Positions 36,002-61,659 of a DNA stretch of 64,000 nucleotides are shown here, piece after piece. Where the stretch lies: the IMG/VR virus record IMGVR_UViG_2540341247_000004, one strand, 5' to 3'. The notes beneath the pieces are model-generated. The model was not told where the DNA came from. It did no database searches and saw only the letters and a list, made by a program, of their open reading frames with translations. Numbering within the stretch: the stretch's first letter is position 1; the number at the start of each line of letters is the position of its first letter. Made by a program: the position numbers and the translations under genes. This stretch comes from an uncultured virus (IMG/VR IMGVR_UViG_2540341247_000004) (taxonomy: Duplodnaviria > Heunggongvirae > Uroviricota > Caudoviricetes).

Positions 36002-36066
36002 ATTTCTCCGTGGCCCCTATTTCTCCGTGGCCCCTATTTCTCCGTGGCCCCTATTTCTCCGTGGCC
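36002..36066 (+). repeat. 17-bp tandem repeat x4 (ATTTCTCCGTGGCCCCT)
   Basis: Read directly from the sequence. Confidence 0.95.
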
Positions 36067-36069
36067 GGC

Positions 36070-36275
36070 GCAGGATCGACCAGGTGGCGCAGCTGGTGGC
36101 AGGATCGACCAGGTGGCGCAGGGCGGCGCAGCTGGTGGCAGGATCGACCAGGCGGCGCAGGGCGGCGCAGCTGGTGGCAGGATCGACCAGGCGGCGCAGG
36201 GCGGCGCAGCTGGTGGCAGGATCGACCAGGTGGCGCAGGGCGGCGCAGCTGGTGGCAGGATCGACCAGGCGGCGG
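36070..36275 (+). repeat. Array A: 39-bp tandem repeat with 5 GCTGGTGG on + strand
   Basis: GCAGGATCGACCAGGYGGCGCAGGGCGGCGCAGCTGGTG units; octamers at 36092, 36131, 36170, 36209, 36248. Confidence 0.95.
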
Positions 36276-36281
36276 CGCTGG

Positions 36282-36338
36282 ATAGTCAACGCTTGACTAT
36301 GTGTAATATTTCACTCTTCATGTGCATATCACGAATCG
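36282..36338 (+). promoter_or_regulatory. Early promoter cassette, copy 1
   Basis: ATAGTCA-N5-TGACTAT inverted repeat overlapping TTGACT, then TTTCAC-N7-GTGCAT. Confidence 0.7.
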
Positions 36339-36368
36339 GGCGCTGCCCCTTACCCAAAGGAATCCAAA

Positions 36369-37295
36369 ATGTCCTACCTGATCCAAAACGAAACTTTCCT
36401 GCACCTGGCCCCCGGTGGCGATGCCTACCGCGTCCAGTTTTACGTTGATGACAACCCCATTGAACCTTGGGATAATGACGGCTTTGTGCCTTTGGTCGCC
36501 TACAGTAACGGGCGTTTTGACACAGACCCGGCGCGCGGTTTCGATCTGCTGAATCCGCTGGGCCACATGACCGACTCCCAGGTCAAGGCCAAGCTGCCCG
36601 AGATCGTGGCGGCGCTGGATTGCGCCCGCGACGGCGCGGCACTTGATCGACTGGCGCGGGATGAATTCCCCGATTTGACCTTGCACGAAGCGCGCCGGGA
36701 ATACCTGGCCGAAATTCTGGGCGACGGGTGGGAAACCCAAGACCGACTCGAGGCGCTGGCGACGCTTTGGAACCTGGCCGGGGTGCCGGCCGCCGTCCAC
36801 ACGTCGCGCGGTTACTCGCAAGGCGATTTTGCGGCGCTTCTGGTGGTCGCGCATCCTGACGCCGTTGTGCAATTCGGATTCACCAGGTCGAACGGCAAGC
36901 CGGATTTTCGCAAGTATCTGGCCACCTGCCCCGATGATCTGGAAAACGCCGCGATTGCATGGGGCGCTTGGTGCTGGGGCGGCGTTATCGGTTACACGGT
37001 CGACCGGATCGACCGCCGGGAATTCGAACGCGCCGGCCTGGAACTGGACCCGGCCACGATAAGCCCCGCCGCCCTGAATGCGCTTGTGTGCTGCACTGAG
37101 GTTGACTCCGGCTGGGGTTTCTATCCTGACCACGATTCCGACTATTTCCCACTTGACCGGAATCACGCTTACGCAATCGGGCAGGCTATCGCGGTGGCAA
37201 ACGCCGACTCCGAGGAAATGGCCGCAGGGCGTGCCGTAGTCATGGCGGCGGCTGTCATGGAAGCGCGCCCCGATCTTGCGCCGCAATGGGTCTAA
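36369..37295 (+). CDS. Hypothetical acidic early protein
   Basis: AAGGA RBS; SRGYSQGD and DSGWGFY motifs. Confidence 0.75.
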   Translation: MSYLIQNETFLHLAPGGDAYRVQFYVDDNPIEPWDNDGFVPLVAYSNGRFDTDPARGFDLLNPLGHMTDSQVKAKLPEIVAALDCARDGAALDRLARDEFPDLTLHEARREYLAEILGDGWETQDRLEALATLWNLAGVPAAVHTSRGYSQGDFAALLVVAHPDAVVQFGFTRSNGKPDFRKYLATCPDDLENAAIAWGAWCWGGVIGYTVDRIDRREFERAGLELDPATISPAALNALVCCTEVDSGWGFYPDHDSDYFPLDRNHAYAIGQAIAVANADSEEMAAGRAVVMAAAVMEARPDLAPQWV

Positions 37296-37297
37296 CC

Positions 37298-37498
37298 ATG
37301 GCTGCGGCGCTGGAAGGCTTGCGGCGGGCACGTCTCGCCGCAGGTATCACCCAGGTGCAGGCCGGGGCGCATATTGGTAAGACGCAATCGCATTTCGCCA
37401 AGATCGAACGCGGCGCGGTTGCCCTGCTGGCCCGCGACGCCGTGGCCCTGGCCGGTCTGCTGGGCGTATCCGTGGAGTCCCTGATAGTCACCGCTTGA
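37298..37498 (+). CDS. XRE-family HTH protein
   Basis: LRRARLAAGITQ...GAHIG.TQSHFAKIERG. Confidence 0.85.
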   Translation: MAAALEGLRRARLAAGITQVQAGAHIGKTQSHFAKIERGAVALLARDAVALAGLLGVSVESLIVTA

Positions 37499-37559
37499 CT
37501 ATGTGCAGATTTTCACGCTTACTGTGAATATCACGAATCAAGAAAGGATCGTTTGAATG
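37484..37559 (+). promoter_or_regulatory. Early promoter plus RBS cassette, copy 2
   Basis: 76 bp, 3 mismatches to 40031-40106. Confidence 0.85.
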
Positions 37560-38288
37560 TCTTATGAAGAACAGAAGGCCCGCGAAATCGCAGCCCGCGC
37601 CGAACGCAGCGACGCCCGCAAGGCGCTGGCGGCTGCGTTGTCTGCCGAACTGGAAAAGCTGACCGGGAGTCCCTGGTCCGTGTCGATCCGTCAAGACGAC
37701 GAGTCGGCATATTGCCCCGGCGAATTTCACGCCGCGAAACTCAGGGAAGCGAAAACCGGCCTTTGCGTCTGGATGATGAATTCGGCGGGCTGGAATGAAC
37801 AGGAAAAGGCCAACTTTTCGGTCTCTGTCCCCATTGACCCGGTCGACGGCGGTGCGCGCGGTTTCGGATCGTGCCCCGGTGTTCCTTACGGACGCAGCGC
37901 CCCCGAGACCAAGGCGAACACAAGCCGCCCGCCCGCTGCTATTGCAAAACAGATCGTCGCCAAGGTGTTGACCGATGAAACCCGCGCGGCGCTGGCGGCA
38001 CTGGCCGAGCTGGACGCCGAACGCCTGGACGAAAAAAGCGCGGCTGCGCTTTGGCGCGAGTCCGTTTCGGTTGCCTCTGGCATCGGCGCGCACGAGTCCG
38101 AACACAACCGGGGCCGCGTCCACTGGCACAACGGGGGCCGCGACCGCTGGGCAGACATTGAATCCGAGGCCAACCGGGCCGGGGGAAAAATCACCCTTGC
38201 GCTACCCAAGGAACACGACCGCGCCGCGCTTATGGTGGCCGAATTGCGCGCCGTGGCGGCCCGTTACTCGAACCGGGGGCAGGCATGA
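37557..38288 (+). CDS. Hypothetical protein
   Basis: Starts at the end of the promoter/RBS cassette. Confidence 0.75.
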   Translation: MSYEEQKAREIAARAERSDARKALAAALSAELEKLTGSPWSVSIRQDDESAYCPGEFHAAKLREAKTGLCVWMMNSAGWNEQEKANFSVSVPIDPVDGGARGFGSCPGVPYGRSAPETKANTSRPPAAIAKQIVAKVLTDETRAALAALAELDAERLDEKSAAALWRESVSVASGIGAHESEHNRGRVHWHNGGRDRWADIESEANRAGGKITLALPKEHDRAALMVAELRAVAARYSNRGQA

Positions 38289-38542
38289 TGCGGGGCCGCG
38301 ATTACCGCGCAGACCGGGCCGCGCTGGCCCGCCGCGCCCTGAAATTCGAACGGCTGGCGGCGTCCTGCCGTGTGCCATTTGAAGCGGAATGTTTTGCCCA
38401 CATGGCGCGCAAGATCAAAGGTGAGATCATGGACTCGCACATTGCAGAACAGCGCCACATTCACGGGCCGCGCCTTTCGCGTCTTTTGCAGGACGTGGCC
38501 CACCTGGACGAAAACGAAACACTGGGGAATCAGCATGCTTGA
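38285..38542 (+). CDS. Hypothetical protein
   Basis: ATGA-coupled ORF. Confidence 0.6.
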   Translation: MMRGRDYRADRAALARRALKFERLAASCRVPFEAECFAHMARKIKGEIMDSHIAEQRHIHGPRLSRLLQDVAHLDENETLGNQHA

Positions 38543-39215
38543 GCTTTGCAAAGTCACCCGCACCGCAGAAAAAACGCAACTTGAATTCATGGGGGCGCGG
38601 GCCGAAGTCTCGGAATCGTGGGCACACCGCCGCGCGGTCCACCATGACCGCAACCGGGGAACCCGCACCGCGCATCTTGTCGACTTCTGGGCCTATTTCC
38701 TGCCCGGTTGGGAACACTACACCCACCCGACGCGGGAAGGGGCCGAAAAACTGGCGGCGCGTCACCTGGTCCAAGAGATGCGAGCCGAATTGCCCGAAGG
38801 CAACGAGTCCTTGTCGATCCCTGACAGGTGCCAGCTTGCCCGGATCATCGCCCGCCGCGCGGTTATGGTGCAGGCAAACCACGAACCCCGAGTCGGTGAC
38901 TTTGTGCAGATGCCAGACGGGACGCGCGAAAGGCTGGTTTATGGTTGGCCGGTGCAGGAAACCCCGGTCGACGGCGAACCTATGCGCAAGGAATGGCAGA
39001 CCTTTCCGGGCGGATCGTTTCACCTGGTCAAATGGGGTAGCGTTTCGCATTCCGGTTCATGCAATGAAACTCTGCCCGGTTCTGACCGCATGGCCCCCAT
39101 GGGGCAGGCCGTGGGGCGGTTCTGGATATGGCGAGACGGTATCAGCGGCGCGCACCGGGGAGTCGACGTGTTCGCCCCTGCGACGGTCTGGGAATTGATG
39201 GAGTCGGGCGCATGA
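38535..39215 (+). CDS. Hypothetical protein (DUF4121-like C-terminal half)
   Basis: PRVGDFV..PDG...R ... GSFHL....SHSG ... FW.W.DG.SGAHRGV. Confidence 0.6.
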   Translation: MLELCKVTRTAEKTQLEFMGARAEVSESWAHRRAVHHDRNRGTRTAHLVDFWAYFLPGWEHYTHPTREGAEKLAARHLVQEMRAELPEGNESLSIPDRCQLARIIARRAVMVQANHEPRVGDFVQMPDGTRERLVYGWPVQETPVDGEPMRKEWQTFPGGSFHLVKWGSVSHSGSCNETLPGSDRMAPMGQAVGRFWIWRDGISGAHRGVDVFAPATVWELMESGA

Positions 39216-39481
39216 AATACCGAACAAAGGCAAACGCGCACGGCGTCCTTGATCTGCGCGCCAGTGCATACGGGACAATGGGCAAGCGTTGGGAATGGTC
39301 CTTTCCTGCTGGCCTGCTGTGCACCCCTGCGGCCCTTCTGGACGGCACAGGAAAACCAGACGCGGCCGCCGGATATTTCCTGACCGAATATACCGGGCAA
39401 ATTCACCCAATTTTCCACCATGACGCGGAATACCGGGGAATCCTGGTCAATGCGCAAGACGTAGAGGAAACCGAACAATGA
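39212..39481 (+). CDS. Hypothetical protein
   Basis: GGAG RBS, ATGA coupling. Confidence 0.65.
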   Translation: MKYRTKANAHGVLDLRASAYGTMGKRWEWSFPAGLLCTPAALLDGTGKPDAAAGYFLTEYTGQIHPIFHHDAEYRGILVNAQDVEETEQ

Positions 39482-39849
39482 CACGCACAATGAATCCCCG
39501 CGCCGCGCTGGATTTTCCGACGCTTAACCCCGCTCTATGGGTTTGCTGGTCGAACCATGGCCGCCCGAGCTGGCCCCATGGGAGTCGCGACGTTGTTTAT
39601 TTGTCGAAAAATCGGCGCAGCCCTTCGGGTTTTGCGAATGGTAAATGGTCCTTCAAGATCGACGGTTTCGCCCTCTATACCAACGATTGCAGGAACGCCG
39701 CCACATTCGAGACCGAGGCCCAGGCGCGGGAATGGCTGGCAGAACAGGAATTCCGCCGCCCCTCTGCCTATTTGGTGAATGTCTCGACCGTTGCAGACGT
39801 CATCCTGCGCGAATTCAACAACGGGGAACCGATGGAGTCCGGGGCATGA
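39478..39849 (+). CDS. Hypothetical protein
   Basis: GAGG RBS, ATGA coupling. Confidence 0.65.
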   Translation: MTRTMNPRAALDFPTLNPALWVCWSNHGRPSWPHGSRDVVYLSKNRRSPSGFANGKWSFKIDGFALYTNDCRNAATFETEAQAREWLAEQEFRRPSAYLVNVSTVADVILREFNNGEPMESGA

Positions 39850-40034
39850 TGCGGGAAGTTACACAGGATGAATTTTACAAGCGGGTTAATCCGCTTGACG
39901 CCGTGGGCGACTGCTACAAGAACCGAGACGGAGAACATGAAATCGAACTGAGAGTCCGCCATAGTCGCAAGGTCATAGGGCGGCGCGTCGATCCGGGCTA
40001 CCCTAAGCCGGTCCGCTTCTACCTGGCCGAATAG
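39846..40034 (+). CDS. Hypothetical protein
   Basis: GGAG RBS, ATGA coupling. Confidence 0.6.
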   Translation: MMREVTQDEFYKRVNPLDAVGDCYKNRDGEHEIELRVRHSRKVIGRRVDPGYPKPVRFYLAE

Positions 40035-40106
40035 TCACCGCTTGACTATGTGCAGATTTTCACGCTTAGTGTGTATATCACGAATCAAGGAAGGATCGTT
40101 TGAATG
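40031..40106 (+). promoter_or_regulatory. Early promoter plus RBS cassette, copy 3
   Basis: Near-identical to 37484-37559. Confidence 0.85.
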
Positions 40107-40433
40107 TTTGAATCTGTGAAACTGACCGAACGCCGCGCCGATGCTTACGCGCGGGCACAGGCGGAACGGGGTAAGCCTGACTTTTGCTTTGTCGCCGTGA
40201 CGCCACAGGAATCCGACCGGCTGCCCGGCCAAGGTGTGGCCCTTGGTATCGCAACCGCGAACCGCCCCGGATACATGCCCATCCCTTGCGCTTGGGCGCG
40301 CTTTGCAAGCTGGGACGACGCCGCCGACCATGCGGACGAATTGAACGCCGCAACCGGCATTGACGCAGAAACCGCGTTCAAGATCACCGCGTCGACCATG
40401 GGCGGAATGCGTTTCACGGGGGCCGCACAATGA
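40104..40433 (+). CDS. Hypothetical protein
   Basis: Starts at the end of the promoter/RBS cassette. Confidence 0.7.
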   Translation: MFESVKLTERRADAYARAQAERGKPDFCFVAVTPQESDRLPGQGVALGIATANRPGYMPIPCAWARFASWDDAADHADELNAATGIDAETAFKITASTMGGMRFTGAAQ

Positions 40434-41109
40434 CCGGGGAACGCTTTTTCACAATCGCCCGCGATGAAACCGAATACTGGGATTCCGCCGTTCTGGCGGA
40501 CCTTGGCGCGGTCAAAATGTTTGGCTTGTATCTGGTGCGCGAAGGTGAGGCGACTCACGTTTGCAGCCTGACCCCGGCGGGCTGGTGCGATTTCGTGGGC
40601 AACTTTCCCGGTTGGGCCGAGGAACCCACGGACTCGCAATTCGAGGCGGGCGCGGCGCTGCGCTATGAAGGCGGCGCGGAGTCGTCGCGGAGTCGTCGCA
40701 CTATGCCGAACGCCTGGACCTGTCCAAGATCGACTCCCGGTTCATAGCTGGCCCTATGGTGATCGAACCCGAGGACGTCGACGCCGATCCGGCGGACCCC
40801 GACGCATACCACGCGGAATTGTGGGAAACGGCGCGGGATTGGTGGAATCAAGGCCCGGACGAACCCGGAATCCTTGAAGCGGATACGCTTGCCGCCTGGA
40901 TGATCGAGGAACGCGACCGGCGGCGCGCGTTGAACCTGCCGCCACTCGAACGGACGGACGAAACCCAGCAACTGCCGCTTTTCGTCACCGCCGCAAACCA
41001 GATCACGGCCAAGCGCGAGTCGATCTGGAACCGGGCTTCGGATCGTTTCGGCCCCATGGTCGCAGCCCGCATGCAACGCCGCGCCTTTGCGCGCCTCAAC
41101 TGGATTTAA
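40430..41109 (+). pseudogene. Single gene of about 222 aa frameshifted by an 11-bp tandem duplication
   Basis: GCGGAGTCGTC twice at 40676-40697; removing one copy joins ORFs 40430-40747 and 40756-41109 in frame. Confidence 0.75.
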
Positions 41110-41121
41110 GGAGTCGTCACC

Positions 41122-41628
41122 ATGACCCGCCCCCGCTGGAAAAAACCCGACGCCCGCAAAACGATTGAATCGCTTGCGGATACCGTGGCCGATGCTTTCG
41201 CCGTCGATCGCCCCACGGTTGGCCCCGGCCTACTTGAACGCGGGCCGAACGACTGGAAATTCAGATTCGATTCGCCGCTGGTCTGGACAACGTGCGGCGC
41301 GGGCCGCCTTTCCGTCGATATTTCCCCGACATTCGCGCACCTTTACTTTTGCTTTGACGATGTGGCCCGCGCGGTCGAGTCGCTGCACTACGCCGCGCAG
41401 CGGCTGAATCCGTGTTCGGGGAAATGGAATCTATGGGAGGCCGCGCCGACTCCGCTGCTGACCTTTGCCCGAGACGTGACCGCCAGTTTTCACGCGGTAG
41501 CCGAGACCGAACCCACGCCCGAAGAGCTGGACGCCTGCCGCCTGAAAAAAGAGCGAGACGCGGCGCACTGGGCCGCCATGCGGGCAGACTTTGCCGCCGC
41601 GCAACTTGAAAAGGAAAATGCGAAATGA
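41122..41628 (+). CDS. Hypothetical protein
   Basis: AAGGAG RBS; LNP.SGKWN motif. Confidence 0.7.
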   Translation: MTRPRWKKPDARKTIESLADTVADAFAVDRPTVGPGLLERGPNDWKFRFDSPLVWTTCGAGRLSVDISPTFAHLYFCFDDVARAVESLHYAAQRLNPCSGKWNLWEAAPTPLLTFARDVTASFHAVAETEPTPEELDACRLKKERDAAHWAAMRADFAAAQLEKENAK

Positions 41629-42008
41629 TTTATCTTGGCAGATCAATCGGCGCGGGCGACGTGCTGGAAATCCAGACGCCGCAAGGCTGGGAACCCTTCA
41701 CCGTGTCAGACTTTGCCCCGTCGACGGGCGAGGTTTACGGGCGCACCCCCGGCGGGGAATACGAACGCGCCGACGCTGGCGGGCGGGCGGTGCGCTGGCC
41801 GCCGCCGCTGCATGCCCCCACGCTTGCGCAAGCCCTGGCCGCGCATGGTATCAGCTACATTCCAGAACCCGACGCCCGCGCATTCCGCAAGTGTTTGACC
41901 GGGCCAGACGGGCAAGAGCTGGGGGCGTTCAACGCACAAGAGGCATGGGCCGAACTGCGCAAGCCGAATCCTTTTGGCTTGGATTGCAAGGGGCCGCGCG
42001 AAAAATGA
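41625..42008 (+). CDS. Hypothetical protein
   Basis: AAGGA RBS; ATGA coupling at both ends. Confidence 0.65.
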   Translation: MIYLGRSIGAGDVLEIQTPQGWEPFTVSDFAPSTGEVYGRTPGGEYERADAGGRAVRWPPPLHAPTLAQALAAHGISYIPEPDARAFRKCLTGPDGQELGAFNAQEAWAELRKPNPFGLDCKGPREK

Positions 42009-43315
42009 CCGCCGCCCCCTTTGTGAATATTGGCCCCGGCGCATCCGTGCCCCTGCGCTATCTGACACGCCACGCGGGAATCTATGGCGCGACCGGGACC
42101 GGCAAAACCACCACCGCCGCCGCCCTGGTTGAACGTATGGCAGACGCCGGAGTCCCGGTCCTTGTGCTGGATGCGAAAGGCGACCTTGAGTCCTTGTCAC
42201 TTGCGGGCGGCGCGGTCTGGGATGTAACGGGCGAACGCGGCGCACGCCGCCGCCTGGACCTGGGCCGCATGGGGCCGGATGAACTGGCGCGGGCGCTGGA
42301 ATTGTCAGAGGCACAGGCCGGGACTCTTGAGATCGCCCACGCTTACGCGCGGCGGCGCGGCGTCAAATGTCACAACCTGGACGATTTGCGGCGCTTGCTG
42401 GGGGACGTGGTGGCGCATCGTGAAACCGTGGCGGCCGAATTCGGATTAGTCACACCCGCGAGCGCCGCCGCGATTCAGCGTGCCCTATTGCGCCTGGATC
42501 GCACCGCCCCCGCCGCCTTTGGTCTGCCCCCGCTTGATCCTTTCGAGGCGGCAACGCGGGGACCGGATGGCCGGGGCAATGTTACCGTTTTGCGCGCCGC
42601 GCCCCTGACCGTGACACCCGGTCTATATGGTGCAGCCGTCGCGCACCTGCTGGGCACGCTCTACGCCGAAGCCGGGGAGCTAGGCGACGTCCCGGCCCCC
42701 GCCCTTGCCGTGTTTATTGACGAGTCGCACATGGTTTTTGATAGTGCCCCTTCTGTGATTATTCGCCGCCTTGAAACCGTGGCCCGGTTGATCCGGTCCA
42801 AGGGAATCGCGCTGATTTTCGCCACGCAATCGCCCGCCGATCTGCCCCCGGCAATCGCGGGGCAACTGGCAACGCGAATCCAGCACGGACTCCGAGGGGC
42901 GACCGGGCGGGGGCTGGCCGAAATTCGCGCCGCCGCTGATACCATGCCGGGGTCTCATTGGCGCGAAACCGTCGAACAGATCAAGACGCTAGGAGTCGGG
43001 CAAGCCCTGGTTTCTGTGCCCGGTGCGGGCGGCGTCCCACAGCCGGCGCGGCTGGTCAATGTGGTGCAGGGCCAAACGCAAGCCCGACCCCTTGCAGATG
43101 ATGAACGCAAGCCCGAGACCTTGCCCTATTTCTCCGACGCCCCGCCGCCTATTTCTCCGACGCCCCGCCGCCCTGAATCGATCTTGCCCCAAGGTTACTT
43201 TGACCGCCCAGGGGGCAACGTCGCCCCGGATCACTGGAAAAAAACGCGCAGCGCCTGGACTCGTTGGACTTCGATTGGATTTTGCGCTTATCTCCTGATT
43301 TTTTTAGTCGGTTAA
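42005..43315 (+). CDS. HerA/FtsK-superfamily ATPase (DUF853/YjgR-like) with predicted C-terminal TM
   Basis: RHAGIYGATGTGKT, DAKGDL, FIDESH, RLIRSKG....ATQSP.DLP..I.GQL..RIQH.LR, LGVGQALVS.....G.PQP; hydrophobic C-terminus. Confidence 0.88.
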   Translation: MTAAPFVNIGPGASVPLRYLTRHAGIYGATGTGKTTTAAALVERMADAGVPVLVLDAKGDLESLSLAGGAVWDVTGERGARRRLDLGRMGPDELARALELSEAQAGTLEIAHAYARRRGVKCHNLDDLRRLLGDVVAHRETVAAEFGLVTPASAAAIQRALLRLDRTAPAAFGLPPLDPFEAATRGPDGRGNVTVLRAAPLTVTPGLYGAAVAHLLGTLYAEAGELGDVPAPALAVFIDESHMVFDSAPSVIIRRLETVARLIRSKGIALIFATQSPADLPPAIAGQLATRIQHGLRGATGRGLAEIRAAADTMPGSHWRETVEQIKTLGVGQALVSVPGAGGVPQPARLVNVVQGQTQARPLADDERKPETLPYFSDAPPPISPTPRRPESILPQGYFDRPGGNVAPDHWKKTRSAWTRWTSIGFCAYLLIFLVG

Positions 43316-43430
43316 TATTTCTCCGACGCCCCGCCGCCTATTTCTCCGACGCCCCGCCGCCTATTTCTCCGACGCCCCGCCGCCTATTTCTCCGACGCCC
43401 CGCCGCCTATTTCTCCGACGCCCCGCCGCC
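43125..43430 (+). repeat. 23-bp repeat CCTATTTCTCCGACGCCCCGCCG: 2 copies at 43125-43170 (inside the ATPase gene) and 5 at 43316-43430
   Basis: Read directly; shares the TATTTCTCCG core with the 36002 repeat. Confidence 0.95.
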
Positions 43431-43583
43431 CAGGGTCGCGCGCAGGCGGGCACACGCGGGCGCGCAGGCGGGCACATAGGCGCGCGGGCAGGCAGAAATC
43501 GTTGAAAAACAAGGGTTTAGCGAGTCATTCCGATTGACACATGACCCAGGAAAACGACCGGAAACCCTTATTTCCAAGGGTTT

Positions 43584-45257
43584 GCGCCGCTGCCCGACCC
43601 TGCGTCCAGATCGCCACCAGCTGCCCGACCCTGCGTCCAGATCGCCACCAGCTGCCCGACCCTGCGTCCAGATCGCCACCAGCTGCCCGGCCCTGCGTCC
43701 AGATCGCCACCAGCTGCCCGACCCTGCGTCCAGATCGCCACCAGCTGCCCGGCCCTGCGTCCAGATCGCCACCAGCTGCCCGGCCCTGCGTCCAGATCGC
43801 CACCAGCTGCCCGACCCTGCGTCCAGATCGCCACCAGCTGCCCGGCCCTGCGTCCAGATCGCCACCAGCTGCCCGGCCCTGCGTCCAGATCGCCACCAGC
43901 TGCCCGACCCTGCGTCCAGATCGCCACCAGCTGCCCGGCCCTGCGTCCAGATCGCCACCAGCTGCGCCGCTGCCCGGCCCTGCGTCCAGATCGCCACCAG
44001 CTGCGCCGCTGCCCGACCCTGCGTCCAGATCGCCACCAGCTGCCCGGCCCTGCGTCCAGATCGCCACCAGCTGCCCGGCCCTGCGTCCAGATCGCCACCA
44101 GCTGCGCCGCTGCCCGGCCCTGCGTCCAGATCGCCACCAGCTGCGCCGCTGCCCGACCCTGCGTCCAGATCGCCACCAGCTGCCCGGCCCTGCGTCCAGA
44201 TCGCCACCAGCTGCCCGGCCCTGCGTCCAGATCGCCACCAGCTGCCCGACCCTGCGTCCAGATCGCCACCAGCTGCCCGACCCTGCGTCCAGATCGCCAC
44301 CAGCTGCCCGGCCCTGCGTCCAGATCGCCACCAGCTGCCCGACCCTGCGTCCAGATCGCCACCAGCTGCCCGGCCCTGCGTCCAGATCGCCACCAGCTGC
44401 CCGGCCCTGCGTCCAGATCGCCACCAGCTGCCCGACCCTGCGTCCAGATCGCCACCAGCTGCCCGGCCCTGCGTCCAGATCGCCACCAGCTGCGCCGCTG
44501 CCCGGCCCTGCGTCCAGATCGCCACCAGCTGCGCCGCTGCCCGACCCTGCGTCCAGATCGCCACCAGCTGCCCGGCCCTGCGTCCAGATCGCCACCAGCT
44601 GCGCCGCTGCCCGGCCCTGCGTCCAGATCGCCACCAGCTGCGCCGCTGCCCGACCCTGCGTCCAGATCGCCACCAGCTGCCCGGCCCTGCGTCCAGATCG
44701 CCACCAGCTGCCCGGCCCTGCGTCCAGATCGCCACCAGCTGCCCGGCCCTGCGTCCAGATCGCCACCAGCTGCCCGACCCTGCGTCCAGATCGCCACCAG
44801 CTGCCCGACCCTGCGTCCAGATCGCCACCAGCTGCCCGGCCCTGCGTCCAGATCGCCACCAGCTGCCCGACCCTGCGTCCAGATCGCCACCAGCTGCCCG
44901 ACCCTGCGTCCAGATCGCCACCAGCTGCCCGGCCCTGCGTCCAGATCGCCACCAGCTGCCCGACCCTGCGTCCAGATCGCCACCAGCTGCCCGACCCTGC
45001 GTCCAGATCGCCACCAGCTGCCCGGCCCTGCGTCCAGATCGCCACCAGCTGCCCGGCCCTGCGTCCAGATCGCCACCAGCTGCCCGACCCTGCGTCCAGA
45101 TCGCCACCAGCTGCCCGGCCCTGCGTCCAGTCGCCACCAGCTGCACCAGCTGCCCGGCCCTGCGTCCAGTCGCCACCAGCTGCCCGACCCTGCGTCCAGA
45201 TCGCCACCAGCTGCCCGGCCCTGCGTCCAGATCGCCACCAGCTGCGCCGCTGCCCGG
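43584..45257 (-). repeat. Array B: about 51 tandem 31-bp units (some with +8 or +9 bp), each with GCTGGTGG on - strand
   Basis: CCCTGCGTCCAGATCGCCACCAGCTGCCCGR units, counted by hand. Confidence 0.97.
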
Positions 45258-45379
45258 ACATTGTGCCTTTTTTCACGTTTTGTGTGTTTTTCACTTGCGA
45301 ATCGCCTAGTGACACGTCTAGACCTGTTTTCACACTTTATGTGCATGCTTGCACTGGATAGCAGGAAAGAGCCGGAACA

Positions 45380-45682
45380 ATGTTCAACCTTATCAAGCGA
45401 AACTTTACCAAAGATACCGCGCCAGTGGCGGCCGAATTCGAATTGCCGCGTCACAAAGGCTTTACCGCAACAATGCGAGTCGGTGGCCTGACAATGCACA
45501 AAACTTTCCCGACTCTGTATGCCGCGCAAGTCTGGATCATGCAGCGCCGCGAATTCGCCCAAACAATGGCAAACGCAATCGGCAAAACGACTCCAGCTGG
45601 TCGCGCCTATACTATTCGCAACTTGGAGACCGGAAAATTCGCCCCTTACAAATGGCAACTGACTCGCGCGGATTTGGTCTAA
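45380..45682 (+). CDS. Hypothetical early protein
   Basis: First gene after array B and operator sites at 45271 and 45328. Confidence 0.7.
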   Translation: MFNLIKRNFTKDTAPVAAEFELPRHKGFTATMRVGGLTMHKTFPTLYAAQVWIMQRREFAQTMANAIGKTTPAGRAYTIRNLETGKFAPYKWQLTRADLV

Positions 45683-45795
45683 TGGAATTGATTGAATTCG
45701 CCCTGACAACTATTCGCCCTGAGATGCAAAACGTCATTGTGTTTCTTGCCGCGCCATTGCTGGCAATTTGGGCAATCGATTCAATCTTCAGATAA
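45682..45795 (+). CDS. 37-aa membrane peptide
   Basis: TAATG coupling; hydrophobic C-terminal half. Confidence 0.5.
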   Translation: MELIEFALTTIRPEMQNVIVFLAAPLLAIWAIDSIFR

Positions 45796-45807
45796 GGAAT
45801 CCGAACA

Positions 45808-45903
45808 ATGATTAAACGCGCTTTCCAGATAGTCGCCTTGATTGCGTTTACCCCTGTTCCGTTAATCGCTGGGGCAATGAACGCAATCAAGGAGTCAATC
45901 TAA
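45808..45903 (+). CDS. 31-aa membrane peptide (not in the ORF track)
   Basis: TAAGGA RBS; MIKRAFQIVALIAFTPVPLIAGAMNAIKESI; TAATG coupling. Confidence 0.6.
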   Translation: MIKRAFQIVALIAFTPVPLIAGAMNAIKESI

Positions 45904-46094
45904 TGACAAGTAACGCCCTTTGGTCAGTTGTGCCAACACTAACGCCATGGCGCGGCGATATGAGACGCAATCCCGCGCCCTATTACATAGGGGCAAGCAT
46001 TAGTCTGACCGAATTCAGTTTTGCGCAACACGTTAAACAAGTCCTGAATCGTCGCGGGATTGCTTGCCACGTCGAATTGATGGAGTCGGAATGA
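45903..46094 (+). CDS. Hypothetical protein
   Basis: AAGGAG RBS, coupled. Confidence 0.65.
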   Translation: MTSNALWSVVPTLTPWRGDMRRNPAPYYIGASISLTEFSFAQHVKQVLNRRGIACHVELMESE

Positions 46095-46291
46095 TGGATA
46101 AAGAGCTCCATACCGCCCTTGGCTTGTCCGATACAGGCCACGTTGAATTGCATGATGCACATTCGCAATCTGAATTGCGCCAATGGATAAGACAATACAT
46201 CCGCTGGGGCGATTGGGGCGGATACTACGGAATCGCAATAGTCGCGCCCTGCGGCGATTGGCTGGAAACATTCGAAAAGGAGTCTGAATGA
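46091..46291 (+). CDS. Hypothetical protein
   Basis: GGAG RBS, ATGA coupling. Confidence 0.65.
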   Translation: MMDKELHTALGLSDTGHVELHDAHSQSELRQWIRQYIRWGDWGGYYGIAIVAPCGDWLETFEKESE

Positions 46292-46608
46292 TGTTTGTTG
46301 CATCTGAAAAGCAATTGCGCGGCTCAATGCGCGGCGCGAAACTTGGCGAATTGACTCCGGCCATTGTTCGGGCAATCGCCAAGGATAGTCACCTGACAAG
46401 ACTCGAGAGAATGGCAAAGCTGAATTCAATTGGCGAATTCCATGGAGTCGAGTATTTGGGCGAATTCAAGAGAACGGGCGAACCAGTTGTCTACTGCAAC
46501 GCCGGTGACACCTATGCCCTTACATTTGTTGCAATTGGCAATCGCGTCCTGCGGCTAACAACTTGGGGCGATATGGTGGAAAGAAACCAAATCAGGGAGT
46601 CGGAATAA
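46288..46608 (+). CDS. Hypothetical protein
   Basis: HGVEY ... YCNAGDTY..T ... WGD.VE motif; AAGGAG RBS. Confidence 0.7.
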   Translation: MMFVASEKQLRGSMRGAKLGELTPAIVRAIAKDSHLTRLERMAKLNSIGEFHGVEYLGEFKRTGEPVVYCNAGDTYALTFVAIGNRVLRLTTWGDMVERNQIRESE

Positions 46609-46835
46609 TGGCCTATGATATGAAAGGCGCGGCAATGCTCAAGCTAGCGATTGCCGGGAATGAACCAGCCCAACGCGCGGTTTATCTGGATTACGTTAAC
46701 AACTTCCTGACCGTGGCCGGATTCGCGTCCTATTACGGATTGAACCAGAAAACCGCCCAAGACTATCTGCAATGGTGGCGCGACATTCACGAGTCGCATT
46801 GCGCGGCAATGAAACAAATTCAGGAGTCGAAATGA
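46608..46835 (+). CDS. Hypothetical protein
   Basis: YLDYVNNFLTV..FA.YYGL motif; GGGAG RBS. Confidence 0.7.
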   Translation: MAYDMKGAAMLKLAIAGNEPAQRAVYLDYVNNFLTVAGFASYYGLNQKTAQDYLQWWRDIHESHCAAMKQIQESK

Positions 46836-47281
46836 TGCAGTTTCAATCAATCGAACAAATCAAGGCGGCCGTTGATTCCGGCCAATCCGTCAAATGGTCG
46901 AATTCGGGATATGACGTTATCAAGGATTCAATCGGGCAGTATCTGATTATATACCGCCCTAACGGATATGCTATTGGTTTGACCAATCAAGCCGGCGAGT
47001 CCCTTAATGGTGATATGGCGGAATTCTACACCGTCGATTCCGAATTCTGGAACAACTGGCAAGTCACGCGCAACGTCATTGCGTGGCAGCTGGAGTTTTT
47101 CGGAAACAACTTTCACCACGTCGAATCCACGTTGATTTCATCGGCTGGAAAGATTCCGGGCAAGCATGAGGAATGTGAATTCGGAATCCGCCCTGAACTT
47201 GGTGGCGGATATACCGCGCAAGTTGTCTGTCCGGAATACATTGCCGCGCGGATCAATGCTGCACAATTGGAGTCGGTGTAA
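46832..47281 (+). CDS. Hypothetical protein
   Basis: IK.AVD.G..V.WSN.GY.VIKD..GQYLI....NGYAIGLT; AGGAG RBS. Confidence 0.7.
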   Translation: MMQFQSIEQIKAAVDSGQSVKWSNSGYDVIKDSIGQYLIIYRPNGYAIGLTNQAGESLNGDMAEFYTVDSEFWNNWQVTRNVIAWQLEFFGNNFHHVESTLISSAGKIPGKHEECEFGIRPELGGGYTAQVVCPEYIAARINAAQLESV

Positions 47282-47613
47282 TGTCGGATCAACGCCCAGC
47301 CTTTTATGTCGCCTTGCATGGCATGCCCGGATTTATGCCGGATCATGTGTCAGGGCCATATCGCTTTGACCGGCGAGTCGACCTGACTCGTTGGGTCACG
47401 GATGAATTGCGCGCGTCTGACTTTTCAGACCGTAGCAGGCGGCAAGTCGACCTTGTGCGCGTCTGGCGTTGGATTCAATCCAATGATTCGTCTGGCAAAT
47501 GCTCTTTTGTCATTGCCGCAACTGATCCGAGTCAACGTGGCCGGATAGTCGAATTCCGCGCCATGACGGCCGCCGAATTCAAATCAGAAGAGGAGTCGGA
47601 ATATGACGCATGA
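47281..47613 (+). CDS. Hypothetical protein
   Basis: GGAG RBS, TAATG coupling; GMPGFMPD. Confidence 0.65.
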   Translation: MSDQRPAFYVALHGMPGFMPDHVSGPYRFDRRVDLTRWVTDELRASDFSDRSRRQVDLVRVWRWIQSNDSSGKCSFVIAATDPSQRGRIVEFRAMTAAEFKSEEESEYDA

Positions 47614-47818
47614 TTGCAAATATGGGCCATGGCCGCATGAGGACTCGCCAGAGTGGCGACGCATGGCAAAACAGGCAATCGCGGAATCCCGCGCGGCGCT
47701 AGATGTAATCCCGCCCCATATGCGAGACGTTGGCAATCCGAATTCGCCTATAAATTCGGGATTGTTCGGAATGGAAACAAGCGCATTCATGGCAATGCAA
47801 TACAAGGAGTCGGAATAA
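47603..47818 (+). CDS. Hypothetical protein
   Basis: GAGGAG RBS; LFGMET..FMAMQYK. Confidence 0.65.
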   Translation: MTHDCKYGPWPHEDSPEWRRMAKQAIAESRAALDVIPPHMRDVGNPNSPINSGLFGMETSAFMAMQYKESE

Positions 47819-48033
47819 TGTTTGGCCAAACTTGCCCCTTTGAAATTTTGCGCGGCGCGATGCTAAAATTCGCGCAAGACTCGCAATTTGAAAACAACTA
47901 TCGCAACACTTGCCCGGAATTTGCAAAAGAGATTACCAGTGCAATTTCACAAATTCAATGCGCCACCACGTTTGAACAATTGGCCGCCGTGCCTTGGGTA
48001 GCAGGACAAGCGGCAATGACCGGAGTCCACTGA
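47818..48033 (+). CDS. Hypothetical protein
   Basis: AAGGAG RBS, TAATG coupling; followed by a terminator. Confidence 0.6.
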   Translation: MFGQTCPFEILRGAMLKFAQDSQFENNYRNTCPEFAKEITSAISQIQCATTFEQLAAVPWVAGQAAMTGVH

Positions 48034-48060
48034 CAAGTTACCGCCTGACGTGACACGATT

Positions 48061-48089
48061 AAACCGCGCCGCATTGGCGCGGTTTTTTT
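48061..48089 (+). terminator. Intrinsic terminator
   Basis: AAACCGCGCC-gcatt-GGCGCGGTTT plus T run. Confidence 0.88.
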
Positions 48090-48091
48090 AT

Positions 48092-48913
48092 GCCCTGCGT
48101 CCAGATCGCCACCAGCTGCACCAGCTGCCCGGCCCTGCGTCCAGATCGCCACCAGCTGCACCAGCTGCCCGGCCCTGCGTCCAGATCGCCACCAGCTGCA
48201 CCAGCTGCCCGGCCCTGCGTCCAGTCGCCACCAGCTGCACCAGCTGCCCGGCCCTGCGTCCAGTCGCCACCAGCTGCACCAGCTGCCCGGCCCTGCGTCC
48301 AGTCGCCACCAGCTGCACCAGCTGCCCGGCCCTGCGTCCAGTCGCCACCAGCTGCACCAGCTGCCCGGCCCTGCGTCCAGATCGCCACCAGTCGCGCCGC
48401 TGCCCGGCCCTGCGTCCAGTCGCCACCAGCTGCACCAGCTGCCCGGCCCTGCGTCCAGTCGCCACCAGTCGCGCCGCTGCCCGGCCCTGCGTCCAGATCG
48501 CCACCAGCTGCACCAGCTGCCCGGCCCTGCGTCCAGTCGCCACCAGTCGCGCCGCTGCCCGGCCCTGCGTCCAGATCGCCACCAGCTGCACCAGCTGCCC
48601 GGCCCTGCGTCCAGTCGCCACCAGCTGCACCAGCTGCCCGGCCCTGCGTCCAGTCGCCACCAGTCGCGCCGCTGCCCGGCCCTGCGTCCAGTCGCCACCA
48701 GCTGCACCAGCTGCCCGGCCCTGCGTCCAGTCGCCACCAGCTGCACCAGCTGCCCGGCCCTGCGTCCAGTCGCCACCAGCTGCACCAGCTGCCCGGCCCT
48801 GCGTCCAGTCGCCACCAGCTGCACCAGCTGCCCGGCCCTGCGTCCAGTCGCCACCAGCTGCACCAGCTGCCCGGCCCTGCGTCCAGTCGCCACCAGCTGC
48901 ACCAGCTGCCCGG
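48092..48913 (-). repeat. Array C: about 21 tandem 38-40-bp units, about 17 with GCTGGTGG on - strand
   Basis: CCCTGCGTCCAG(A)TCGCCACCAGCTGCACCAGCTGCCCGG units, counted by hand. Confidence 0.97.
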
Positions 48914-49039
48914 ACATTGTGCCCTGACATTGCGTTGCATGATGCAAGCAAGGCTATCATGCGCTTTGACACATGATCTGACACATGGAAACACGGAAAA
49001 ATCGTTGCTTTTCAATGGGTTGCCGGTCGCGGTGGCTTT

Positions 49040-49194
49040 GGGTCCCTCTTGCGCCTGGCCGCAGGGGGCGGGGACGCGGAACCCCGAATCTCGCGCAATT
49101 TGAAACTTTCCTCAATAAAACAGCAATGATTATGAGGTTGGACTCATGTAAATAGGCTTAACATAGTATTTTAGTATGTAAATAGGCTTAACAT
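49040..49194 (+). other. Candidate cos region (cosQ-like, cosN-like, direct repeats)
   Basis: GGGTCCC at 49040; GGGCGGGGACGC at 49066-49077 (9/12 to lambda GGGCGGCGACCT); ATGTAAATAGGCTTAACAT x2 at 49146 and 49176. Confidence 0.5.
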
Positions 49195-49485: not shown

Positions 49486-49840
49486 TGTTACAGGAGTTAC
49501 AGGATTTTCAAGGCTGTAACACAAGGCTGTAACAAGTTAAGTCCTTGTTTTTTTTGATTTTTCTTTAATTTGTTACAGGTGTTACAGGAATCTCTTAGAG
49601 AGTATAGAGAAATAGGGGAAAAGTGAAAATCGGAAGGGGGAATAGGAAATAGGGCTAAAGCCATCATACAACTGGTCATAGCATGGTGATGAACAGGTGC
49701 ATCGGGGAAGCCCGTATCGTGTAGAGACATAAGAGATTCCTGTAACACCTGTAACATCTCAGAATTTTCTTTTAGTTACATACACTTACGCTGTTACAGC
49801 CTTTGTTACAGCCTTGTTACAGGATTCAAAGCTGTAACAC
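49486..49840. other. Putative replication origin with TGTTACA/TGTAACA iterons
   Basis: 11 full copies in both orientations with AT-rich spacers, downstream of the primase/VirE gene. Confidence 0.75.
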
Positions 49841-50019
49841 TCCCTACGCGATCATCGGACACAGCGCATCATGCGCCCTGTCGCATCATCGCCTACGTTG
49901 CATCATACAACCATTTCAATCTTCGTTTGTGTTACATCATTGCGTGTGTGTTATTTCACTTGAAATGTGAAACATGCGATCATAGTATATGTCTCATCTT
50001 CAACAGAAAGGATTCTGAC

Positions 50020-50475
50020 ATGAAACCTCACGCGAAACCCCGCAGCCGAGCCATATTGGCCCTGATGACACTGGCAGGGATGGATGAAAAGAAGCCGAAT
50101 CCGGCTATCGAAACCCCTTCCGCCGACCGTGCGAGGCCGCTTTTCATGGCACTGGAAGGCGTCGTTATGGCCGCGATCCCCGGACCGAGAAGCGAGGCCC
50201 TGGTTACTCAGGCGGAGCTCGCACGGCGCTTGGACGTGCCCAAACTCGTCGTCGGTGCCATTGTCAAAGTGCTGGAACAGGATGGCCGGGTGCAGCGCTA
50301 CCCGAGTTTCCGCGAGGATGACGGCCTTATCTGCGGAACCGGCTATCAACGGGTATCGGACGGCCCGCTGATCGGCTCCGTCCCCGGCGCAGATGCGGGC
50401 GCGGCAGAGGTATGGGAAGACAAATGGGGGAAAGAGACCGGGGGAGCCTGGTGGTCGAAGGGGTCGAAGACATGA
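50020..50475 (+). CDS. Winged-helix DNA-binding protein
   Basis: TQAELARRLDVPKLVVGAIVKVLEQDG.V; AAGGA RBS. Confidence 0.7.
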   Translation: MKPHAKPRSRAILALMTLAGMDEKKPNPAIETPSADRARPLFMALEGVVMAAIPGPRSEALVTQAELARRLDVPKLVVGAIVKVLEQDGRVQRYPSFREDDGLICGTGYQRVSDGPLIGSVPGADAGAAEVWEDKWGKETGGAWWSKGSKT

Positions 50476-50510: not shown

Positions 50511-50541
50511 AAAGAAAAGGGCCGCTAATGCGGCCCTTCTT
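50511..50541. terminator. Bidirectional terminator between convergent genes
   Basis: AAGGGCCGC-taat-GCGGCCCTT with A/T-rich flanks. Confidence 0.75.
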
Positions 50542-54619: not shown

Positions 54620-54650
54620 GGGGTGTGGCGATCTACGCCCACCCCTTTTT
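54620..54650 (+). terminator. Probable intrinsic terminator
   Basis: GGGGTGTGGCG-atcta-CGCCCACCCC-TTTTT. Confidence 0.6.
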
Positions 54651-54681
54651 ACGCTCATACCAAAAGGTGCTGACCTATTTC

Positions 54682-55905
54682 ATGGCCCATCTATTTGAAG
54701 CCATTGCTCATGCAGAAATGGGACCATCCGCCGCTGATCGGTGGATGAACTGCACGAAGTCTGTCGAGCTTATACGAGTTTTGAAGCGCCGGGGCGACAT
54801 ACCAGCGCGTGAAACGAGTGAGTTCGCTGCGGAGGGCACAGTAGCCCACCAAGTCCGCGAAGATGCGTTGAACCTTGGTCTCGATCCTCACGATTTCATC
54901 GGCCAGAAGATCACCACCGACGGGTTCACGTTCGAAATAACCGAAGAAATGTCCGATCACATTCAACCGGGCGTGGACTGGATTCGTGAGATCCTGCCGC
55001 GCTTCGACGTTGAAATTCGTGTCCGTCTTGACCCTTGGTTGCCCAATCAGTTCGGGACGATGGACACAGGCGGCGTCTTCGGTGACACCCTGGTCGTTTG
55101 CGATTTCAAATTCGGCGCAGGTGAACCCGTCGACGCCAAGATGAATCGCCAGATGCGCCTATATGCCCTTGGATACTGGCATTTCATCGGACGTCCGAAG
55201 GTCAAGACCGTCCTGATGGTGATTGACCAGCCGCGCGCAGGGGAGATGAAATTCTGGGAAATCTCCCTGGACGAGTTGCTGGAATTCGCAAAGGAAGCGT
55301 CCGACAAGTTCCTGCGGATCAAGACGGGTCGAACAGAGTATAAACCGGACGTCAAGGGATGCCGCTGGTGCCCCGTGCGTCGGACCCGTGCCGGATGCCC
55401 AGCATACAACGAAATGATGCACAAAATCTTCGGTGAAGCCTTTGCCGATGAATACTTCGACCTGACAGGCGGTCCCTGGTTCACTGATCCCAACCTGATG
55501 ACACCTGAGAAGCGCGCCCGCGTCGCGCTGTTCGCATCAGACGCCAAGGCTTGGATCGACAAGGTGGCGGGCGACTCCTTGGCGCAGGCCGTCGAGGGGG
55601 ACCCCGATCCCGGCACGAAGGCGGTCGTTGGTCGCAACGGCGCAAGATACTTCCGAGACGAGAAACGCGCCGCAGAAATCCTGTTTGCTGCGGTGGGCAT
55701 GGATGCCTTCAAACCCTTGGCGTTGAACGGCATCACCGAGATCGAAAAACTGGTCAAGCCCGGTCGCCGGAAGGCGGGTCACCCCGAGGCATGGCAGTTG
55801 CTCCAAGAACTTCTCGACCAGAAGCCGGGTTCGCCCGCGCTGGCCCCGGAAGACGACCCCAGGCGGGCCTATGTGCCCATCGGGGATGAGTTTGAAGACC
55901 TGTGA
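54682..55905 (+). CDS. DUF2800 Cas4-like PD-(D/E)xK exonuclease
   Basis: HA..GPS.A.RWMNC, AAEGT.AH, FGT.D, DFKFG.G, N.QM.LYALG, I.QPR, CRWC. Confidence 0.9.
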   Translation: MAHLFEAIAHAEMGPSAADRWMNCTKSVELIRVLKRRGDIPARETSEFAAEGTVAHQVREDALNLGLDPHDFIGQKITTDGFTFEITEEMSDHIQPGVDWIREILPRFDVEIRVRLDPWLPNQFGTMDTGGVFGDTLVVCDFKFGAGEPVDAKMNRQMRLYALGYWHFIGRPKVKTVLMVIDQPRAGEMKFWEISLDELLEFAKEASDKFLRIKTGRTEYKPDVKGCRWCPVRRTRAGCPAYNEMMHKIFGEAFADEYFDLTGGPWFTDPNLMTPEKRARVALFASDAKAWIDKVAGDSLAQAVEGDPDPGTKAVVGRNGARYFRDEKRAAEILFAAVGMDAFKPLALNGITEIEKLVKPGRRKAGHPEAWQLLQELLDQKPGSPALAPEDDPRRAYVPIGDEFEDL

Positions 55906-55921
55906 TCGAAAGGAAAACACC

Positions 55922-56719: not shown

Positions 56720-56751
56720 GCCATTCACCTTTCATGGGAAAGACACCTGAA

Positions 56752-57369: not shown

Positions 57370-57662
57370 TAAAAGCGTTGACAGAAGCTGAACGCAAAGC
57401 CGTCGACGCCTACCTAGATTCCGGGGGTCGCGTTTATACCGCGCGCACGGGCGAAAGTGGCCTTTATGACGAGACGGGGCTTCCTCTGCGACCCGGTATC
57501 GATGGGGTGGGAAGACATACCCGTGCGCGCGTTCAGGCGTTTCGTCGGATGAAGGCCGAAGGTGCCACCAATGTTGAGATTGCGGAGCATCTGGGGATCA
57601 GCCTTTACGCATTGAGGGGCACCCTCAACCGCTGGGCTGGTTGGGATGGTGACGACAAATGA
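57366..57662 (+). CDS. HTH protein
   Basis: G.TN.EIAEHLGIS; ATGA coupling. Confidence 0.65.
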   Translation: MIKALTEAERKAVDAYLDSGGRVYTARTGESGLYDETGLPLRPGIDGVGRHTRARVQAFRRMKAEGATNVEIAEHLGISLYALRGTLNRWAGWDGDDK

Positions 57663-61575: not shown

Positions 61576-61659
61576 CTTTCAACTATTTCTTGCCTGAGAC
61601 GTGCAATTGATCTAAGTCAATAAACGTGAAATTAATCGCACTTCAATCAACAGTGGATC

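Follow-up and report, generated by a model that had tools for sequence, protein, structure and literature searches.

Three tandem repeat arrays rich in the E. coli Chi octamer at operon boundaries of a siphophage related to the RcD cluster

Background

A 64,000-nucleotide stretch of the uncultured virus IMGVR_UViG_2540341247_000004 (hereafter 'the window'; position 1 is its first letter) contains three tandem repeat arrays, A, B and C, most of whose units carry GCTGGTGG, the Chi octamer of Escherichia coli RecBCD. The initial annotation of this DNA interpreted the arrays as oriented Chi elements that could act as nuclease firebreaks, as recombination hotspots or as a sink for the host resection enzyme. 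The locus thus raises the question of whether the octamer is the reason for the arrays or simply happens to lie in a repeat of another kind. On balance, and with moderate confidence, we regard the arrays as noncoding minisatellites, formed by recent expansion of a boundary element, that provide homology tracts for the gain and loss of gene cassettes. The stretch of the unit that holds the octamer varies from lineage to lineage, and the presence of the octamer there is most likely coincidental rather than a nuclease signal.

Results and discussion

Three related arrays

Array limits and periods were called by Tandem Repeats Finder (TRF) and the units were counted in a separate census (Table 1). 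The window contains 78 exact matches to GCTGGTGG on its two strands. Dinucleotide-preserving shuffles gave a mean of 2.67 (standard deviation 1.52, largest 7) and none of 100 reached 78. The 73 oriented copies counted by the initial annotation were found again with the same orientations: 5 on the + strand and none on the - strand in array A, and none on the + strand in arrays B and C, which have 51 and 17, respectively, on the - strand. The five remaining sites lie outside the arrays, at 12874 and 15437 (+) and at 2215, 35838 and 52172 (-).

All 51 units of array B include the octamer. They are spaced by 31 bp (40 cases), 39 bp (nine cases) or 30 bp (one case) and comprise seven sequence variants, which differ by one G/A site and one 8-bp insert and follow each other in a block-like order. 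In array C the octamer is present in 17 of 21 units; the other four have CCACCAGT in place of CCACCAGC. Throughout the three arrays, GCCACCAG (= CTGGTGGC) is invariant (77 of 77 units).

That the three arrays are related, as originally proposed, is clear from what they share. An identical 17-nucleotide block, GCCACCAGCTGCGCCGC, is common to array A and the 39-bp variant of array B, and array A is the reverse complement of B and C, so that the inversion described at the outset is real. The + strand is accordingly G-rich in A (G 0.49, C 0.27) and C-rich in B and C (C 0.48-0.49, G 0.25-0.26). Arrays B and C have unit variants and the right flank GGACATTGTGCC in common and the final units of B are of the C type, which indicates that the two exchange sequence. 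The small number of variants among the 51 units of B, their block-like order and the C-type units at its end also indicate that the arrays are young.

Together the arrays occupy 2,681 bp, or 4.0% of a genome of approximately 66,957 bp (64,276 bp without them). Each lies in an intergenic gap at an operon boundary, in agreement with the initial placement at the borders of transcription units or cassettes. Array A is in a divergent gap, between a leftward gene ending at 35990 and a rightward gene starting at 36369, and array B is between the gene for a HerA-like ATPase and an operon starting at 45380. Since its period of 31 is not a multiple of three, array B is noncoding and a protein-coding repeat is ruled out for it; five of the six frames nevertheless give open reading frames running through it because the unit has no stop codons. 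The frames that flank it have no family match in PHROG or Pfam.

Copy number was compared with read-derived data. In the Logan contigs of run X1, possibly made from the source sample, the summed word depth was 1,069 for unique cassette sequence, 87,298 for the edge of B (approximately 82x) and 28,727 for the edge of C (approximately 27x). These values fit tens of copies, although depth summed over contigs does not equal copy number. Run X4, which comes from another sample and study, likewise contains contigs of the unit and portions of the cassette.

Array B had no match among phage records in a sensitive blastn search and its exact unit pattern gave no hit in viral contigs. In metagenome contigs the pattern occurs at 34 loci, all isolated and non-tandem and in unrelated reading frames (encoding LVAxWTQ-type peptides); for these reasons we treat them as chance matches. 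Rfam has no match in the window, and RNA folding of the array units was no better than that of shuffled sequence (z +0.42 and +0.68 for the two strands, the first for four B units).

Several familiar kinds of element were considered and set aside. Iterons, centromere-like repeats and CRISPR arrays are all tandem or regularly spaced direct repeats in the noncoding DNA of mobile elements. A CRISPR array is ruled out here, as the units stand head to tail without spacers. An origin or iteron role was dropped because origin-like TGTTACAG repeats form a separate element at 49.49-49.84 kb. PHROG and Pfam revealed no partition genes in the frames that were scanned with them. A G-quadruplex on the G-rich strand was dropped because the A-variant units lose a G tract, and a GATC methylation target because GATC is gone in 15 of the 21 units of array C.

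How much the count means

The 73 sites are not independent events, since the tandem copies trace to the origin of one unit and to one inversion. What has to be explained is the octamer in a single unit. For a unit of 31-39 nucleotides with this composition, the chance of its occurring on either strand is approximately 0.002-0.005, a low value for any single array, though not when very many windows are scanned.

Repeats at the same places in related phages

The closest records are 23 phages of the RcD cluster of Rhodobacter capsulatus (Casjensviridae, 66-69 kb), with identities of 49-50% for the primase and 62-64% for TerL. The viral contig L001 is more remotely related, as are loci resembling prophages in metagenome-assembled genomes (MAGs) of Amylibacter, Amaricoccus and Rhodobacteraceae. 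We compared the right arms of seven RcD phages: RcMcDreamy, RcCWillis, RcPeripeteia, RcRios, RcPescado, RcAqua and RcAquaphina.

In all seven, a GC-rich unit core, GCTGCCCTAGGGCCGATCTG (up to three substitutions allowed), is present in the gap following the operon of the HerA-like ATPase, downstream of a cluster of TTTCTCYG motifs (see below) and on the + strand only. Depending on the phage, it is also found in a second gap and at the right end, with one to four copies per site. The units start 20-70 bp past stop codons. The arrays of the window follow the same order, with one after the HerA-like ATPase gene and TTTCTCYG cluster and another beside the right cohesive end (cos). No unit was found, in the seven phages, in the divergent region corresponding to array A.

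The repeats themselves vary considerably. The unit of 70 bp is present in 2.7 copies in RcMcDreamy and 3.7 in RcRios, while RcPescado has no TRF array call and RcCWillis has different units of 35, 40 and 129 bp. Downstream of the primase of L001 lie two arrays, one with 7.8 copies of a 16-bp unit and one with 14.6 copies of a 19-bp unit, and the prophage L006 has a 39-bp unit (6.8 copies); no comparable array was found in the DNA examined of L005 and L007. Arrays B and C have just 8-10 nucleotides ((G)CCGCTGCCC) in common with the RcD units, in the same orientation, and their homology is inferred mainly from position. Their longest common word is GCCGCTGCCC, again in the same orientation. The word (C)CGCTGCCC also occurs in the same orientation in B, C and the RcD units, and CGCTGCCC is present in L001 too. 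Array A shares 8-10 nucleotides with L001 only, and reversed. Relative to the neighbouring genes, the strand asymmetry of the L001 arrays is the opposite one.

The RcD phages resemble the window in architecture, in the slots used, in the C-rich strand of B and C and in that the units flank variable accessory cassettes. They differ in having one to four copies of 35-129-bp units, compared with 5, 51 and 21 copies of 31-39-bp units here, in the absence of a unit where array A sits (inverted in the window) and in the octamer. GCTGGTGG does not occur in any repeat array or unit site of the seven RcD phages, L001 or L006. Eight complete relatives have three to eight scattered copies per genome, compared with two to five of the reversed control word. 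The check proposed at the outset, for arrays at the same positions in related phages, found putatively homologous units in the same slots of the eight complete relatives, at one to four copies, none of them with the octamer. Because the relatives have repeats at the same spots without it, the match to Chi looks coincidental.

The right-end repeats of RcD phages are noted in one sentence of their published description (PLoS One 2021, PMC8601537). Our search, with limited literature coverage, found no description of tandem Chi arrays or of noncoding tandem repeats beside phage cos sites. The low-copy right-end repeats of the RcD phages are thus already known; the arrays of 51 and 21 units, the inverted third array and the fixed slot architecture of the whole group are new.

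Cassettes that come and go between the repeats

The 2.8-kb cassette between B and C (45259-48091) has a GC content of 50.5%, compared with 58.7% for the window, and its small reading frames have no match in PHROG or Pfam. With this low GC content and these frames, the cassette was probably acquired recently. Megablast found nothing similar to it among phage records. In run X2, a contig end at 47344 is followed by an exact copy of 43515-43539, and CATG stands at both edges. This junction implies a variant without 43540-47343, that is, without array B and approximately two-thirds of the cassette.

A similar situation exists in the RcD phages. RcRios has a cassette of approximately 1.1 kb between two unit sites, which is absent from RcAqua and RcPeripeteia, and homology breaks inside the units. 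The RcRios stretches 10430-10934 and 12182-12396 (L013) align to adjacent stretches of RcAqua, the cassette itself being 11117-12174. The breakpoints of this insertion or deletion coincide with units. The low GC content of the B-C cassette and the variant in run X2 support the original impression that the DNA bounded by the arrays looks dispensable.

A contig of low depth in run X5, labelled with a different organism, matches 45410-45541 exactly and then passes into an exact match to 49686-49708, within the origin region; it represents a relative with a rearrangement or else a chimera.

Is the octamer a host signal?

Rhodobacteraceae genomes, from the likely host family, were used as stand-ins for the host. 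AddB of the alphaproteobacterial type scored above the cut-off in three of four such genomes, and RecC in none. Strand polarity was examined in two. For G367, a complete chromosome, we used 800 kb of one replichore, in which 37 of 40 windows agree in the sign of their GC skew. GCTGGTGG occurs 39 times on the leading and 31 times on the lagging strand (z 0.96, rank 7,959 of 18,148, observed/expected 0.95), and its leading fraction (0.56) is below that of words of the same composition (0.62). For the 246-kb contig C8 of G002, an Amaricoccus MAG with a related prophage, the counts were 20:8 (rank 389 of 5,081, observed/expected 0.90). The positive control GGGCAGGG, the FtsK-orienting word, was strongly polarised in both (103:15 and ranked first in G367, 35:3 and in the top three in G002). 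The octamer, whose polarity in the host chromosome the initial annotation had proposed to check, does not rise above background in these stand-ins. Whole-MAG counts of the octamer and of the reversed word were 579/479, 328/249 and 195/132 (1.2-1.5-fold).

No other word of the units was outstanding in either stand-in, the best being GTGGCGAT (z 3.41, rank 158). When G367 and G002 were searched for a genuine Chi, nothing clear emerged besides GGGCAGGG, and none of the strongly skewed words of these genomes is abundant in the arrays. The best leads for Chi were CGCTGGGC (104:35) and GCGCTGGG (102:38) in G367 and GCTGGCGG (64:23) in G002.

Orientation is a further point. As stated by Zheng, Casjens, Davidson, Amundsen and Smith (Genome Res 2025, PMC12315714), Chi is met from its 3' side by an enzyme entering at an exposed end. 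The right cos end is 158 bp to the right of array C, 3.8-5.5 kb from array B and approximately 13 kb from array A. With their octamers on the - strand, B and C are inactive for an enzyme entering there, as the initial annotation had cautioned; only array A, with five copies, is active. The same annotation had observed that the octamers of A and B face inward toward the segment from 36.3 to 43.6 kb, and this is indeed the case. The phage also encodes a Cas4-family exonuclease and a Gp2.5-like annealing protein (PHROG matches); in lambdoid phages, according to the same paper, such a Rec module goes with few Chi sites.

Two published Chi systems serve for comparison. The cos lambdoid phages LLS (of E. 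coli) and MD8 (of Pseudomonas aeruginosa) have 8-32 dispersed sites on the top strand, where they are active for an enzyme coming in from the right end, no Rec module and a word that is the proven Chi of the host (PMC12315714). In the window, by contrast, the sites are in tandem, noncoding and, for B and C, on the bottom strand; an exonuclease and an annealing protein are present; and in the stand-ins, which use AddAB, the word is not polarised. A synthetic array of 15 Chi sites in the Caulobacter chromosome, described by Badrinarayanan et al. (PLoS Genet 2017, PMC5443536), is similar in that a word containing GGTGG is repeated in tandem in an alphaproteobacterium that uses AddAB. It differs in its word and in that its effect was demonstrated, while the arrays described here are known from sequence. 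The Caulobacter AddAB Chi, GCGGTGGT, has a GGTGG core and is related, but not identical, to the octamer (PMC5443536); it is absent from the units of all three arrays.

Origin and possible functions of the arrays

We infer both the mechanism of expansion and the part played in cassette exchange. The ancestral element would be a lineage-specific, strand-asymmetric (C-rich) and GC-rich boundary element, located in this group of RcD-like Casjensviridae of Rhodobacteraceae between accessory operons of the right arm and next to the right cos end. It may have been duplicated by replication slippage or unequal recombination, probably aided by the exonuclease and annealing protein of the phage, and copies at different sites (B and C) would then have been homogenised. 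The resulting direct repeats would act as homology tracts, between which accessory cassettes could be lost, gained and exchanged.

A number of points weigh against this view. The insertion or deletion in the RcD phages shows that breakpoints coincide with units but not which mechanism made them. Fifty-one copies are more than cassette exchange by homology requires, and carrying 2,681 bp is a genuine burden for a genome packaged from cos; for both reasons the long arrays may have a selected function. The conserved position, the short common word and its orientation in the RcD phages suggest that a single unit has a sequence-specific function. Given the inversion of A and the opposite strand asymmetry in L001, a description as a polar element is not universal. 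Finally, the copy numbers are those of the assembly.

Protein binding is possible, although we consider it unlikely. The unit would then be a predicted site for a DNA-binding protein of phage or host (for example, the small terminase subunit near cos, a 70-residue helix-turn-helix protein encoded at 37286-37498, or a nucleoid protein) and the array an insulator, a sink or an accessory packaging or termination site. Unit sites hold their positions in relatives, including that next to cos; the units include short palindromes (CAGCTG here, CCCTAGGG in the RcD phages); the RcMcDreamy motif TAGGGCCGATC recurs outside the array, near cos; and the main period of B, 31 bp, is close to three turns of the DNA helix. 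However, the unit sequences diverge strongly between lineages, with periods of 16, 19, 35, 39, 40, 70 and 129 bp and no common phasing, array A is inverted, the cos flank conserved with RcMcDreamy ends well short of the arrays, and no binding protein has been identified. The idea that the arrays are Rho-dependent terminators or insulators is improbable as an explanation of the whole. Rightward transcription of B, C and the RcD units would give a C-rich, G-poor and weakly structured RNA after the last gene of an operon, which is the composition of Rho loading sites. The base composition of the sense strand of B and C given above, and that of the neighbouring TTTCTCCG clusters (C 0.40-0.52, G 0.17-0.18), are consistent with this, as are the folding of the four-unit B RNA and the start of the RcD units shortly after stop codons. 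A function based on composition would also explain a fast turnover of units with a maintained excess of C. On the other side, array C is already behind a strong intrinsic terminator, the C-rich strand of L001 is antisense to the neighbouring accessory genes, array A is upstream of a promoter region rather than at an operon end, and the 51 copies are left unexplained. For the function of the single ancestral unit, as distinct from the long arrays, a protein-binding site and a Rho loading site are the main candidates.

A Chi role of the arrays is unlikely. It would require that the octamer, or the overlapping CTGGTGGC or GGTGGCG of the invariant core, be read by AddAB or RecBCD of the true host, and that the arrays, in part near cos, attenuate resection, promote recombination and RecA loading or titrate the enzyme; we rate this as quite improbable. 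The 73 copies, the invariance of the core and the inward orientation of A and B speak in its favour. So do two reports: in Caulobacter, GCGGTGGT is an alphaproteobacterial AddAB Chi with a GGTGG core and an array of 15 sites attenuated resection in one orientation only (PMC5443536), and in lambdoid phages that use cos and have no Rec module, 8-25 Chi are clustered near the right end, while MD8 has 32 Pseudomonas Chi (PMC12315714). Firebreaks, hotspots and a sink all nevertheless become difficult to maintain when the repeats of the relatives are without the octamer and no word of the unit is polarised in the two stand-ins, although the control word is. The distribution of AddB and RecC among the stand-ins, the inactive orientation of B and C for entry at the nearby right cos end (the opposite of the LLS pattern) and the recombination genes of the phage point in the same direction. 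As an explanation in its own right, stuffer DNA is very doubtful. In this case array growth would keep the cos-packaged genome within the range of length required by the capsid after loss of accessory DNA. The genome length with and without arrays can be compared with the 65,779-68,972 bp of the listed RcD genomes, and the arrays adjoin cassettes that come and go, but the argument is purely correlative, with one genome that has large arrays. It is compatible with expansion of a boundary element and is no true alternative to it.

A second repeat family beside the arrays

The motif (A)TTTCTCYG, followed by GC-rich bases, forms a second repeat family, present on the + strand only (10 matches in the window, 0.03 expected). 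Its clusters occupy the same three places in the window and in the seven RcD phages, one in the divergent promoter region, one within the 3' tail of the HerA-like ATPase gene and one in the gap that follows this gene (Table 1). The RcD phages have at least four TTTCTCYG copies in the gap matching 43316-43430, followed by one copy of the unit. In L010 the positions are 12165-12209, 18131-18154 and 19112-19213. The order of TTTCTCCG cluster, array and operon start is alike at arrays A and B. The family is better conserved than the large arrays and may be the site of a phage regulator; its layout recalls the one-orientation 'stoperator' sites of mycobacteriophages.

Genome context

The window represents 64 kb of a siphophage genome. 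A near-identical viral fragment, G001 (18,978 bp, 99-100% identical), covers 57007-64000 and 1-8982, without the arrays, and includes 2,957 extra bases (G001:C1:8988-11944) that bridge the end of the window to its start. Since both ends are joined in this way, the circular map is approximately 66,957 bp. An integrase reading frame at 1-1248 probably begins in the bridged gap. Scans with PHROG and Pfam identified the integrase, small and large terminase subunits, portal, protease, capsid, tape measure and endolysin, together with a methyltransferase, ThyX, primase-helicase, Cas4-type exonuclease, Gp2.5-like annealing protein and DNA polymerase. The small terminase subunit, TerS, is encoded at 1802-2533. 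A search with the primase in 401 genomes of the host family found full-length relatives in G002 only and no closer prophage. The 308-residue protein encoded after array A has no relative among viral contigs.

Table 1. Coordinates of the arrays and of neighbouring features in the window
Feature	Position	Strand	Remarks
ATTTCTCCGTGGCCCCT cluster	36002-36066	+	17 bp, 3.8 copies; directly upstream of array A
Array A	36086-36274	+	TRF period 39, 4.8 copies; approximately 5 units of 39 bp
HerA-like ATPase gene	41591-43315	+	Last gene before array B; 'AAA-ATPase' in RcD annotations
TATTTCTCCGACGCCCCGCCGCC x2	43125-43172	+	Inside 3' tail of HerA-like ATPase frame; two at the same place in RcD phages
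TATTTCTCCGACGCCCCGCCGCC x5, tandem (23 bp)	43316-43430	+	158 bp upstream of array B
Array B	43589-45258 (TRF 43589-45245)	-	TRF period 31, 51.2 copies; 51 units
Intrinsic terminator	48061-48085	+	11-bp stem, then T run; closes cassette operon, directly before array C
Array C	48092-48913	-	TRF period 39, 21.0 copies; 21 units of 38-40 bp
Putative cos overhang GGGACGCGGAAC	49071-49082		Region aligns to both RcMcDreamy ends
Primase-helicase	50541-53066	-	PHROG/Pfam
Exonuclease	54625-55905		PHROG; RcD homologue annotated as Cas4 family
Gp2.5-like single-stranded DNA-binding and annealing protein	55871-56671		PHROG
Exonuclease (second)	56734-57369		PHROG

The cos assignment in Table 1 is putative and is based on the alignment to both ends of RcMcDreamy and on the 12-nucleotide 5' overhangs given for the RcD cluster in PMC8601537. 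The flanks (48990-49130) are conserved with RcMcDreamy for approximately 80 bp on the left and 50 bp on the right, including TTTGAAA..TTCCTCAAT.AAAC. A leftward terminator lies near cos, at 49306-49285. Between cos and the primase gene is an AT-rich stretch with direct and inverted repeats of the TGTTACAG type (49488-49840), which is probably the replication origin; it adjoins the gene for a 182-residue protein with a weak MarR-type match (49927-50475). RcMcDreamy and L001 have other short repeats at this place. Two further tandem repeats, both with a period divisible by three, are probably coding: one at 10002-10193, after the major head gene (57 bp, 3.3 copies), and one at 56573-56649, within the tail of the Gp2.5-like gene (36 bp, 2.1 copies). 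A scan for sigma-70 promoters was uninformative (seven sites, 4.8 expected).

Conclusions

The arrays serve as a caution: a renowned 8-mer inside a tandem unit yields a striking count from a single chance event. Should a word of the invariant core prove to be Chi after all, it would reveal both the signal that AddAB reads in a Rhodobacteraceae host and a new tactic against nucleases, an extreme tandem form of the Chi-clustering strategy recently described for lambdoid phages. In either case, phage genomes are compact, and it is unusual for one to devote 2.7 kb to noncoding tandem repeats placed at three operon borders. A repeat in fixed slots, with cassettes coming and going between its copies, points to a simple mechanism of modular early-gene exchange.

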